Of a stretch of 64,000 nt of DNA, positions 11,321-21,426 are shown one piece after another (within the stretch, counting starts at the first letter, position 1; every line of letters starts with the position of its first letter). Origin of the DNA: Promethearchaeota archaeon. Its GTDB lineage: Archaea; Asgardarchaeota; Lokiarchaeia; Sigyniarchaeales; SOKP01. Below the pieces are notes generated by a model. It made no database searches, was not told the origin of the DNA, and saw nothing but the letters and a program-made list of their open reading frames with translations. Made by a program: the position numbers and the translations under genes. The DNA lies in the NCBI GenBank assembly GCA_048940925.1, contig JBHLOC010000002.1, forward strand, positions 32,001 through 96,000, given 5' to 3'.

Positions 11321-12653
11321 TTAGAAGTAAATGTTATCAAAAATTATTGTTTCCCTTCTATCTGGACCAATAGAGATCATAGCTATATCTACTTGTAACT
11401 CATCTCTGATGGCTTTAATATAAGTTTTCATAGTGTCAGGTAAAGCCTCATATCCTTTTTCTGCTATTTCTAACCATCTATCTCTACTCTTTTCATCCCA
11501 TCCCTCAAATGATCTATAAACTGGTTTGCATTCTTCTATAATCTCATGCTGAATAGGCCAACTTTCAAGTATTTCTCCGTCTAGCTCATATGCAGTACAC
11601 ATTTTTATAGGATTAATTCCTTGAAGGGCATCTAATAAGGTTATAATCACCTTATCAATCCCATTAATCATTATACCATATTTTATATTAAAGAGATCTA
11701 GCCACCCAACTCTGCGTGGTCTTCCTGTTACTGTCCCATATTCATGACCTTGTTCTCGAATTTTTGTAGCAACATCATTAAACAATTCAGTAGGGAATTT
11801 GCCTTCACCCACTCTAGAAGTATACGCTTTAACTATACCTAGTACTTTATTTATCTTTTTTGGCGGAATTCCTGTTCCAGCAGAAATTCCAAGAGCGTTG
11901 GCATTTGAAGACGTACCAAATGGGTAAAAACCATGATCTATACATAACAGATTACCTTGAGCACCTTCAAACACAATTTTTTTACCACTATCTATAGCTT
12001 TATTCAAGTAATATGCTGTATCGGTCACATATTGTTTAATTTGTTTACCATAAGACTTATATTCTTCATAAATAGAGTCTAAATCGACGTTCCAACTTGG
12101 ATCGTACACATGAATTAAATTCTTCTTTATGTTATACAATTTTTCTAATTTAGGTTTTAACACGTCAGGATTAATCAGATCATATATTCTTAATCCCCAA
12201 CGAGCTGCTTTATCAGAATAAGCTGGTCCAATTCCTCGTTTAGTTGTACCAGCTCTATATTCACCCTTCCATTTTTCTTCCAAACCATCTAAAGTGCGAT
12301 GAAATGGGAAAATCACATGTGCAGTAGAACTTAATTTCAAATTGATCTTTTTATTAAGCCTTTTTAAATTTTCAATTTCTTCAAGAAGAACTTTTGGATC
12401 TATCACACATCCATTCGCAATAACACATTCCTTTTCAAGGGGAGCACCGCTAGGAATTAGCTTGAATTTATATTTTATTCCATTTGCTTTTATCGTGTGA
12501 CCTGCATTATTACCCCCGTTGTATCTTACAACAATATCTGCTTTTTGGGCTAAGTAATCGACGAATTTACCTTTTCCTTCGTATGGGGTTAGTATGCGAT
12601 TTGCTTTGCTAAACTCCCCAACTTAAACCCACAACTGCAATACAATTACTCAT
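11321..12653 (-). CDS. purA: adenylosuccinate synthetase, split by a 31-nt insert: join(complement 12614..12653, 11321..12582), 433 aa
   Basis: Spliced N-terminus [43 protein letters not shown]; [31 protein letters not shown]. The ORF-track call starting at 12406 lacks the N-terminus. Confidence 0.95.
12583..12613 (-). other. putative 31-nt BHB-type mRNA intron in purA
   Basis: GGGG-AG|U-UUAG...CUAA-CCCC-AU|A. Removal restores the GAC (Asp) codon and the reading frame. Confidence 0.85.
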
Positions 12654-12878
12654 AAGCCATTTTCCATTTGATATTTTTTTAGAATTACATCATCTTATTT
12701 GATCCAAAAAAGATTATTATAAACAGTTTAAAAAATTTTTGGTAGGAAAGAATAGACATAAAAATGATATGAAATTATTTTTATATCAGAATTTTCTTTA
12801 AAGTTATAACTTTATTTTGATAAGCGATTAATAAAAATAAAATCCCTAAAGAGAAATCTCTTTAAAGATGCGGGAAAT

Positions 12879-13799
12879 ATGCCACAGAAAACAATTTTGT
12901 GTGATCTCTCTCATAATGAAATGTTAAACATAGAAGATGCTGAATTTACTGAATTTTTAAATCTTTTGAAAAGAATGGATATTAAAATCAAGAAAACTGA
13001 GGATGAGCATCTTAAAAAGAATATGTTAAGTGATGTGGATCTCTTAATAATTGGTAATCCAATAGATGATTATTTCTCCAGTCTTGAAGTTAAATACATA
13101 GTTGATTTTGTTAGAAGTGGAGGAGGATTACTTCTTTTAAGTGAATATGGAGCAGATTATCTTCAAAAAACTAATTTAAATGATATTTCAGGAAAATTTG
13201 GGATCCTTTTTGAAAAGAATATAATAAAAGAAACGATTCAGGGGAATCAAAATGGCTCGAGTATATTGCATATAAAAGATTTTTCAAAACATCAACTTAA
13301 TAGACATATTAGAGAAATTGTCATTGGAGGAGCATGTTCTCTAATTTTAAGTAAAAATGCTAAACCTATTTTTCGAATAAGTAAACAAAATGCGTGGTCA
13401 GAAGCATTTGATAGTACTACTGAGAAATGGATTAAAGAAGAAGAAGAAAGAGAACAAATAATAGCTGCATACACAGAATTTGGGCATGGAAAGGTATTAG
13501 CGATTGGAGATATTGATCTTTTCACAGCGGATTCAAATATTGGAATTAACTCCTTGGATAATCAAAAATTTCTGCAAAACGCTATAAATTGGTTAATCGA
13601 ACCAGTAAAAGAACAAAAAGTCATAGCTTTTTTACTTAATCAGTTAGGTGATCTTCAATATGAAATCAGAGAAACCAATAAAGTATTAAATAACATTATT
13701 GAAACTATCACAATATTAGAAAAAAGAATAAGTTATTTAGAAGAAAACTCAAGTTTTCATAAAAAAACTTTAACTACTGAAAAGAATAGCGAACACTAA
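12879..13799 (+). CDS. GIFT (GldG/IFT52-like, DUF4350-like) domain protein with C-terminal coiled coil
   Basis: ILCDLSHNE, DLLIIGNP, DFVRSGGGLLLL, TNLN...FGI, GKVLAIGD..LF, DN.KFL.NAINWL; heptad tail. Confidence 0.7.
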   Translation: MPQKTILCDLSHNEMLNIEDAEFTEFLNLLKRMDIKIKKTEDEHLKKNMLSDVDLLIIGNPIDDYFSSLEVKYIVDFVRSGGGLLLLSEYGADYLQKTNLNDISGKFGILFEKNIIKETIQGNQNGSSILHIKDFSKHQLNRHIREIVIGGACSLILSKNAKPIFRISKQNAWSEAFDSTTEKWIKEEEEREQIIAAYTEFGHGKVLAIGDIDLFTADSNIGINSLDNQKFLQNAINWLIEPVKEQKVIAFLLNQLGDLQYEIRETNKVLNNIIETITILEKRISYLEENSSFHKKTLTTEKNSEH

Positions 13800-20945: not shown

Positions 20946-21164
20946 TTTTACTTATCTAAATAATATATTTTTTCTTTTTATAAATTAAAAAACCATTAAT
21001 TTCTAATTATTTTTTTTAATCTTGATTTCAATTAAATTATAATTGCTTTTTCCTAACCCTATATCTTAAGCTCAAAAAATATTTTAACACTAATTCATAC
21101 TATTAATATATTAAATAAATAATATAATAGCTTAAAAAAAAAAGAAAAATAGGAAGGTATTTTA

Positions 21165-21426
21165 ATGGCCCGCTGTCCAGAAAGTTTTTTTGTATTAACA
21201 ATTTAACATGGAATGCGGAGGGTTTATGAAATACCATTCAGCTATAAAACAAGTCGTCTGTCAATCATGTGGACTGTCTTTAACGAGACATGAATTAGAT
21301 GGGTATTGGAAAAAGGTGAGGGATGAAAATATTACAGAAGCAGATGATACGCAGCAAAAGAAAAATCGTAGAAAAGAATGGCTTGAATGGTATTCGTCAT
21401 CCAAATCTGATAAGGAGAATTATTAA
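21165..21426 (+). CDS. small zinc-ribbon protein split by a 31-nt insert: join(21165..21182, 21214..21426), 76 aa
   Basis: Spliced product MARCPECGGFMKYHSAIKQVVCQSCGLSL has both CxxC pairs. SD-like AGGAAGGT lies before ATG 21165. Confidence 0.82.
21183..21213 (+). other. putative 31-nt BHB-type mRNA intron in the zinc-ribbon gene
   Basis: CCAG-AA|A-GUU...AAC-AUGG-AA|U with exon stem CCCGCUGU/GCGGAGGG. Confidence 0.75.

Follow-up and report, generated by a model that had tools for sequence, protein, structure and literature searches.

The window analysed here is a stretch of 64,000 nucleotides (nt) from a Promethearchaeota archaeon (G000:C41:32001-96000, where G000 is the working label of this genome, other G numbers denote relatives and C numbers denote contigs). 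It carries two unrelated genes, purA, encoding adenylosuccinate synthetase, and a gene for a small zinc-ribbon protein, each of which is interrupted by a short insert. Both inserts are very probably archaeal bulge-helix-bulge (BHB) introns residing in protein-coding mRNAs, and members of a population of introns of ~30 nt distributed over ~1% of the genes. This reading is supported because the presence or absence of the inserts among relatives is exact at the predicted cuts, because the helices are conserved and partly covary, and because the exons are constrained at the protein level. The original prediction, of two 31-nt inserts that disrupt the reading frame through an early stop and lie in conserved motifs, was borne out, the motifs being the P-loop of purA and the first CPxC knuckle of the zinc ribbon. 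The assembly of this genome comprises 4.8 Mb in 90 contigs at 30% GC, with a completeness score of 100% and an estimated contamination of 8.4%.

The BHB layout used throughout is h–H(4)–bulge(3)–h'…h'–H(4)–bulge(3)–h, in which each cut falls after the second base of the bulge. Two of the genome's own tRNA introns served to calibrate this cut rule, one of 44 nt in tRNA-Met on C10 and one of 30 nt at the non-canonical position 32 of tRNA-Ala on C40, and the rule coincides exactly with the borders obtained by ARAGORN from the cloverleaf, both introns having H paired at 4/4. In purA, which lies on the minus strand, exon 1 (12653-12614) starts with the ATG at 12653-12651 and consists of 13 codons and one further base, ending in …GLSWG and the G of an Asp codon. 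Its last six bases form the 5' strand of the central helix (GGGG, 12619-12616) and, next to it, two of the three bulge bases (AG, 12615-12614). The 31-nt intron (12613-12583) begins with the third bulge base (U, 12613), continues with an inner helix h' of four pairs (UUAG at 12612-12609 with CUAA at 12592-12589), and ends with the second strand of the central helix (CCCC, 12588-12585) and the bulge bases AU (12584-12583). The complete motif thus reads GGGG AG|U UUAG…CUAA CCCC AU|A, with H paired at 4/4 and no outer helix, i.e., the HBh' form. Exon 2 (12582-11321) opens with AC GAA GGA AAA GGT, giving (D)EGKGK, and matches the Pfam family Adenylsucc_synt with E = 7e-155, although only over profile positions 10-416 of 416. 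The break interrupts the P-loop at codon 14 (WG|DEGKGK), and reading on into the insert gives GUU UAG and hence an early stop, while the joined product would have the junction peptide GLSWGDEGKGK. A search with the protein found a single purA match in this genome.

The zinc-ribbon gene is encoded on the plus strand. Exon 1 (21165-21182) starts with the ATG at 21165 and encodes MARCPE, and its start-codon context, GGTATTTTAATGGC, is also present in orthologues that have no intron. Within this exon lie the 5' strand of an outer helix (CUGU, 21173-21176), that of the central helix (CCAG, 21177-21180) and the bulge bases AA (21181-21182). The 31-nt intron (21183-21213) consists of the third bulge base (A, 21183), a loop closed by an inner helix h' of three pairs (GUU at 21184-21186 with AAC at 21205-21207), the second strand of the central helix (AUGG, 21208-21211) and the bulge bases AA (21212-21213). 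Exon 2 (21214-21426) begins CGGFMKYHSAIKQVVCQSCGLSL and encodes 70 amino acids and a stop (CGGFMKYHS…CQSCG); it contributes the remaining bulge base (U, 21214) and the strand GCGG (21215-21218), which closes the outer helix of four pairs with CUGU. The motif as a whole is CUGU CCAG AA|A GUU…AAC AUGG AA|U GCGG, in which CCAG and AUGG pair at three of four positions. The gene is split after codon 6, within the first CPxC knuckle, and a TAA inside the insert breaks the frame; the joined product would carry the junction peptide MARCPECGGFMK. Searching protein families with the joined protein returned generic zinc-ribbon matches only, all below threshold and starting at residues 2-4. The intron ends in AUGGAA in this genome (window 21208-21213) and in AUGGAU in G018, and so provides an in-frame AUG that is absent in the other ten species bearing the intron. 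In these two genomes, an unspliced mRNA could encode a 72-aa variant lacking the first Cys.

In both genes the predicted BHB cuts are the sole cuts that give back the conserved protein, WG|DEGKGK and CPE|CGG, as found in the intron-less orthologues. The BHB geometry originally proposed for the two inserts therefore holds, the canonical cuts restoring the conserved protein in either case. The inserts go beyond what chance would give, because the intron-less orthologues confirm the borders to the base. A search with purA exon 2 covered 60 genomes, and 30 loci from the same genus were compared. An insert of 30 or 31 nt occupies the identical purA site in ten of these 30 congeners, between TGGGGAG and ACGARGG, while the remaining 20 are uninterrupted and read TGGGGnGAyGArGG. 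Outside the genus, 12 purA genes, drawn from other families and classes, were compared, and none has an interruption. For the zinc-ribbon gene, CCAGAA and TGYGG are separated in 12 of 30 congeners by 28-31 nt whose interior differs among species, and 18 have no insert; four orthologues fetched from other families, picked for flagged in-frame stops, are all uninterrupted. The two introns are distributed independently of each other, as shown, e.g., by G033 and G017, which carry the purA intron alone, and by G011, in which only the zinc-ribbon intron is present. Judged from these sequences, the introns appear to come and go within the genus and to be absent from other families. On the purA tree, the purA intron requires at least three to four gains or losses, so that precise losses or gains would be needed. 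The simplest reading would be one gain in purA followed by precise losses, because every copy shares the core …TCGCAT….

The predicted helices have been retained where the sequences around them have changed. In the purA introns, 90.8% of helix cells are paired, compared with at most 49% after sliding of the 3' partners. All ten sequences have H paired, as GGGG:CCCC or, in eight orthologues, GGGG:CCCU; h' has 4-6 base pairs (bp) and h is missing. Three pairs have changed on both sides (UA>AU, GC>AU and UA>CG), a degree of covariation reached in 3 of 500 shuffles. In the zinc-ribbon introns, 84% of cells are paired as opposed to at most 38% when slid, with H at 3/4 in all 12 species, h at 4 bp and h' at 2-3 bp. 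Covariation is slight here, the paired bases being mostly constrained by the exons, yet the interior of the intron has been almost wholly replaced between lineages and the border helices have been kept. The bulges are 3 nt on both strands in the introns of both genes. Furthermore, exon 1 of purA displays synonymous swaps of several bases within codons among the ten intron-bearing orthologues (e.g., Leu-Ser as TTA AGT or as CTT TCG). As the frame and the amino acids have been kept, this exon is probably translated and joined to exon 2, and the genes are not pseudogenes. Both exons of purA are open and conserved, with 75-88% identity among the orthologues.

The genome encodes the enzymes that such splicing would require, namely two EndA paralogues, on C58 and C18, and RtcB, on C40. 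The first EndA paralogue has its best match in the catalytic subunit of the heterotetrameric Aeropyrum pernix enzyme (3p1z_B), and the Tyr, His and Lys positions are read as kept in the alignment. The second has its best match in EndA of Methanocaldococcus jannaschii and carries a Thr at the His of …KEHS…, so that the catalytic His is read as lost and the protein would serve as the structural beta subunit. Asgard EndA has been described as an (alpha-beta)2 enzyme whose L1 loop confers broad specificity (PMC5829648). The alignments support an (alpha-beta)2-type host EndA, which is the kind expected for relaxed motifs, and they are consistent with an L1 loop. The subunit type, which the original prediction had singled out for checking, thus agrees with the proposal, as does the presence of RtcB. 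From these components, we infer cleavage and ligation of the purA and zinc-ribbon mRNAs. The primary transcript would fold locally, such that H arises from the pairing of four exon bases with four bases at the intron's 3' end, either strand being left with a bulge of 3 nt, and H would stack on the intron hairpin h' and sometimes on the exon-exon helix h. The heterotetrameric (alpha-beta)2 EndA would then cut after the second base of each bulge, and RtcB would join the exon ends, carrying a 2',3'-cyclic phosphate and a 5'-OH, while releasing the intron of 30 or 31 nt. In this scheme, neither the PurA P-loop nor the zinc ribbon's first Cys knuckle would be encoded until the mRNA has been joined.

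Further introns of the same kind were found by a census designed to put homology first and to be blind to structure, in which stop-to-stop open reading frames (ORFs) of the congener G006 were compared with this genome by tblastn. The sample was 2.0 Mb (60%) of the single-contig G006 genome and included 1,809 well-matched ORFs with ~398,000 aligned residues. All in-frame inserts of at least 24 nt that contain a stop in this genome relative to G006 are exactly 30 nt long (11 rows, 9 loci), in contrast to the stop-free in-frame inserts, whose lengths spread smoothly over 12-63 nt. At all nine loci, the coding strand has a BHB score of at least 8 no more than 6 nt to either side of the alignment gap, a score of 8 being attained at random coding positions with P = 0.127. 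The loci were named with Pfam for eight G006 orthologues and from the sequence context for EF-2. The 30-nt introns lie beside EQERGIT in EF-2 (C32:27895-27924), in the P-loop of aIF2-gamma, at DxxGQ of a Ras GTPase, at KHSTGG of an AMP/thymidine-phosphorylase-like enzyme and at HWDREW of a GH38 mannosidase, and they also interrupt an ACS-like ligase (C17:5106-5135), an AIR-synthase-related protein, an Amidohydro_3 protein and an ABC permease. In addition, a frame-shifting BHB intron of 31 nt was found in rpoN, at the CC..M motif, and its removal restores …KRMIV|SHVDL…. Beyond purA and the zinc-ribbon gene, this makes ten further BHB introns in this genome, nine of 30 nt and one of 31 nt, and 12 unrelated genes in total. 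A genome-wide layer of such introns, as originally proposed, is therefore supported by data gathered without reference to structure.

The census also gives an impression of where the introns lie and how common they are. At least 8 of the 12 lie in classic motifs for catalysis or ligand binding, which resembles where inteins are placed; these are the P-loops of purA and aIF2-gamma, DxxGQ of the Ras GTPase, KHSTGG, HWDREW, the position beside EQERGIT, CC..M of RpoN and the zinc knuckle. Placement within the first 14 codons, stressed in the original prediction, applies to purA and the zinc-ribbon gene but is not common and appears coincidental. In a search for short first exons among 487 ORFs, with no matches in the reversed-peptide control, the sole case was the zinc-ribbon gene, which was recovered blind. 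Similarly, the shared AGUUU and YUAAC elements are present in the purA and zinc-ribbon introns of this genome, but they vary among the orthologues and were not seen in the other ten introns. The reverse comparison showed that G006 has inserts of its own, three of them 30 nt long with BHB scores of 9-11, and also a frame-shifting insert of 28 nt. Based on 11 introns in at most ~1.2 Mb of compared coding sequence, the genome would hold roughly 30-60 introns, in ~1% of its genes, with introns shared with G006 left out. A density of two per 64 kb had implied ~150 per genome, which is too high, as the window with its two introns is ~3 times as dense as the genome average. The Ras family, with 95 matches in the genome, one of them between the purA and zinc-ribbon genes (C41:45820-46311, window 13820-14311, within the stretch 13802-14335), has a 30-nt intron in one of ~90 genes. 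This abundance of Ras-family genes, like the heavy interruption of the tRNA genes, agrees with an Asgard archaeon of the Loki type.

Several observations weigh against the BHB reading. The central helix of the zinc-ribbon intron has one mismatch in every species, and the purA intron lacks the outer helix, so that both motifs are relaxed and their cleavage by the host EndA is assumed. Minimum free energy (MFE) folding of the whole purA region is no better than that of shuffled sequences (z = 0.24), and therefore it is the local motif that counts. Exact strings spanning the spliced junctions of the purA and zinc-ribbon genes had no matches in Joint Genome Institute (JGI) metagenome contigs. Finally, an ab initio scan combining the BHB motif with ORF restoration (L = 10-120, both strands) yielded no excess over a mirror-geometry control, lengths offset by L±1 and L±2 serving as further controls. 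The scan fails because junctions between genes yield so many chance motifs (~100 per length) that a signal of tens is lost among them. The BHB motif alone has no predictive power in a genome of 30% GC, and the case rests on comparative data. An excess over chance, on which the claim of a genome-wide layer had been made to depend, is hence not seen with the ab initio scan; when homology comes first, all stop-containing in-frame inserts of at least 24 nt are 30 nt long and score as BHB.

Other explanations could account for part of these observations. The inserts might be tolerated without being removed, translation restarting downstream to give proteins shortened at the N-terminus. The zinc-ribbon inserts of G000 and G018 would fit this, since their AUGGAA or AUGGAU ends place an in-frame AUG just before exon 2 (M-E-CGG… in G000), yet this AUG is missing from the other ten zinc-ribbon introns. 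For purA, the first in-frame start listed in exon 2 is the GTG at 12406, and a protein starting there would have 361 aa and lack the P-loop and ~70 residues. Restarting also leaves the conservation of exon 1 unexplained and would not rescue genes interrupted in the middle such as EF-2, and the chance that it accounts for the inserts appears slim. The ribosome could instead hop over the insert on an unspliced mRNA, as in the translational bypassing exemplified by phage T4 gene 60 and the mitochondrial byp elements. The inserts are indeed short hairpins, and a stop codon follows closely on the break; the zinc-ribbon insert of G000 also has GAA at its end, which is likewise the final codon of exon 1. 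However, this match seems coincidental, as 10 of the 12 zinc-ribbon orthologue inserts end in …CUGAAA or …CUGAAG, putting a GAA landing site out of register. Moreover, the break in purA divides a codon (G|AC), and a matching codon on which the ribosome could land to yield DEGKGK is lacking. Nor would bypassing lead one to expect a 4-bp helix and two 3-nt bulges exactly at the borders in 12 unrelated genes, and it is accordingly a slimmer prospect than restarting.

The frame-breaking inserts in both genes, in an assembly of 90 contigs with contamination estimated as above, could also suggest decaying pseudogenes or assembly artefacts. Yet the same inserts recur in independently assembled congeners, ten for purA and 12 for the zinc-ribbon gene, and the same class of intron interrupts EF-2, aIF2-gamma and RpoN. 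Both exons are open and conserved, as noted for purA, and the search of G000 with the purA protein gave one match only. Decay or misassembly is thus the least credible of the three alternatives, and BHB introns in the mRNAs remain the preferred explanation.

Some observations concern the relationships among the introns themselves. The interiors of the EF-2 and ACS-like introns are identical at 17 of 23 bases, where the maximum of 300 shuffles was 16, and a hairpin loop ending in WTCC occurs in 6 of 15 introns (those of EF-2, the ACS-like gene, aIF2-gamma and the Ras GTPase, and two of G006). Such resemblance suggests that some introns may be copies of one another. The ACS-like gene is found twice with an identical 30-nt intron, at C17:5106-5135 and on C57 at ~77,600, with slightly different flanks, which reflects either a duplication or the presence of two strains in the bin, given the contamination estimate of 8.4%.

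Outside the window, the rpoA' (Rpb1-like) gene carries a frame-breaking insert of 65 nt relative to G006, on the minus strand of C62 at ~7926-7990, right after …CMGHFGH. In the MFE fold, long helices of 12+6+5 bp between the exons surround this insert. As a single canonical BHB intron it did not hold up, as GGGC:GCCC fits the 5' cut but the 3' cut needed lies 4 nt past the canonical position, and treating it as nested introns of 45+20 nt was a weak solution. A second Ras-family match with an in-frame stop, on C68, was set aside because it looks like an N-terminally truncated fragment rather than a gene with a 30-nt intron. Short first and last exons were sought with peptides up- and downstream of the ends of high-scoring segment pairs (HSPs), using reversed-peptide controls. 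Only the zinc-ribbon gene (N-terminal) and rpoN (C-terminal) were convincing, and candidates with gaps of 53, 88, 98, 100, 32 and 29 nt had no BHB motif and were dropped.

Taken further, it can be proposed that Asgard archaea of the Loki type maintain dynamic introns of ~30 nt, spliced by EndA and RtcB, in ~1% of their protein genes, which are gained, precisely lost and possibly copied, and which prefer the most conserved catalytic motifs in the manner of inteins. We regard this wider proposal as having slightly better than even prospects. If true, the closest prokaryotic relatives of eukaryotes would have a second mRNA intron system based on protein enzymes, and the expression of EF-2, aIF2-gamma, RNA polymerase subunits and purA would depend on the tRNA-splicing machinery. 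Archaeal mRNA splicing, treated so far as a curiosity of the single gene cbf5, would then affect tens of Asgard genes, including essential genes of translation and transcription, and this bears on the intron tolerance of the archaeal ancestor of eukaryotes. There are practical consequences as well. Gene callers would report the interrupted genes as truncated, split or pseudogenes, calling purA without its P-loop and the zinc-ribbon protein without a Cys ligand. Consequently, a "missing" or "broken" purA, EF-2 or aIF2-gamma in metagenome-assembled genomes (MAGs) may be an intron artefact. The presence and absence of the introns within one genus also offer a natural system in which to study intron gain and precise loss. 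No paper on BHB introns in Asgard protein genes was found in a literature search.

Three known systems invite comparison. In HAC1/XBP1 splicing, a non-spliceosomal endonuclease cuts the mRNA and a tRNA ligase joins the ends (RtcB in metazoa), the removal of a short intron shifting the frame. The nuclease is IRE1, which acts on paired 7-nt loops, and the splicing event is regulated by stress. The sites described here differ in being BHB motifs, not twin loops of the IRE1 type. Another parallel is the cbf5 intron, on which studies were reportedly carried out by Watanabe in 2002 and Yoshinari in 2006. This intron of Crenarchaeota (Desulfurococcales and Sulfolobales) is the only confirmed case of archaeal pre-mRNA splicing (Yokobori 2009, PMC2738675), and in the literature examined such splicing is documented for cbf5 only (PMC2738675; PMC5829648). 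As in cbf5, a BHB intron resides in a protein gene of a host with a hetero-oligomeric EndA and was apparently gained first and then secondarily lost inside a clade. However, cbf5 concerns one gene in one lineage, whereas here at least 12 unrelated genes of an Asgard archaeon carry introns of the 30/31-nt class, with splicing deduced from sequence. The cbf5 gene of this genome is itself uninterrupted, its TruB_N match lying within one open frame of 342 aa that has no stops.

The introns also resemble those in tRNA genes of Asgard and TACK archaea, sharing the motif, presumably the enzymes, and repeated gains at sites capable of forming a BHB (Marck & Grosjean 2003; bioRxiv 10.64898/2026.10.13.758758). 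In the text searched of the preprint on Asgard tRNA introns, the term "mRNA" occurs 0 times, and protein genes are not treated (bioRxiv 10.64898/2026.10.13.758758). In this genome, ARAGORN called only 34 tRNA genes, 22 of them with an intron, and many of the calls are clearly mis-modelled. Still, the comparison with tRNA introns of the same genome, as suggested in the original prediction, revealed the same cut rule and one clean case, the 30-nt BHB intron of tRNA-Ala on C40, which matches the mRNA introns in size class. What sets the introns of purA, the zinc-ribbon gene and their counterparts apart from tRNA introns is the host molecule, an mRNA, so that excision must also restore a reading frame.

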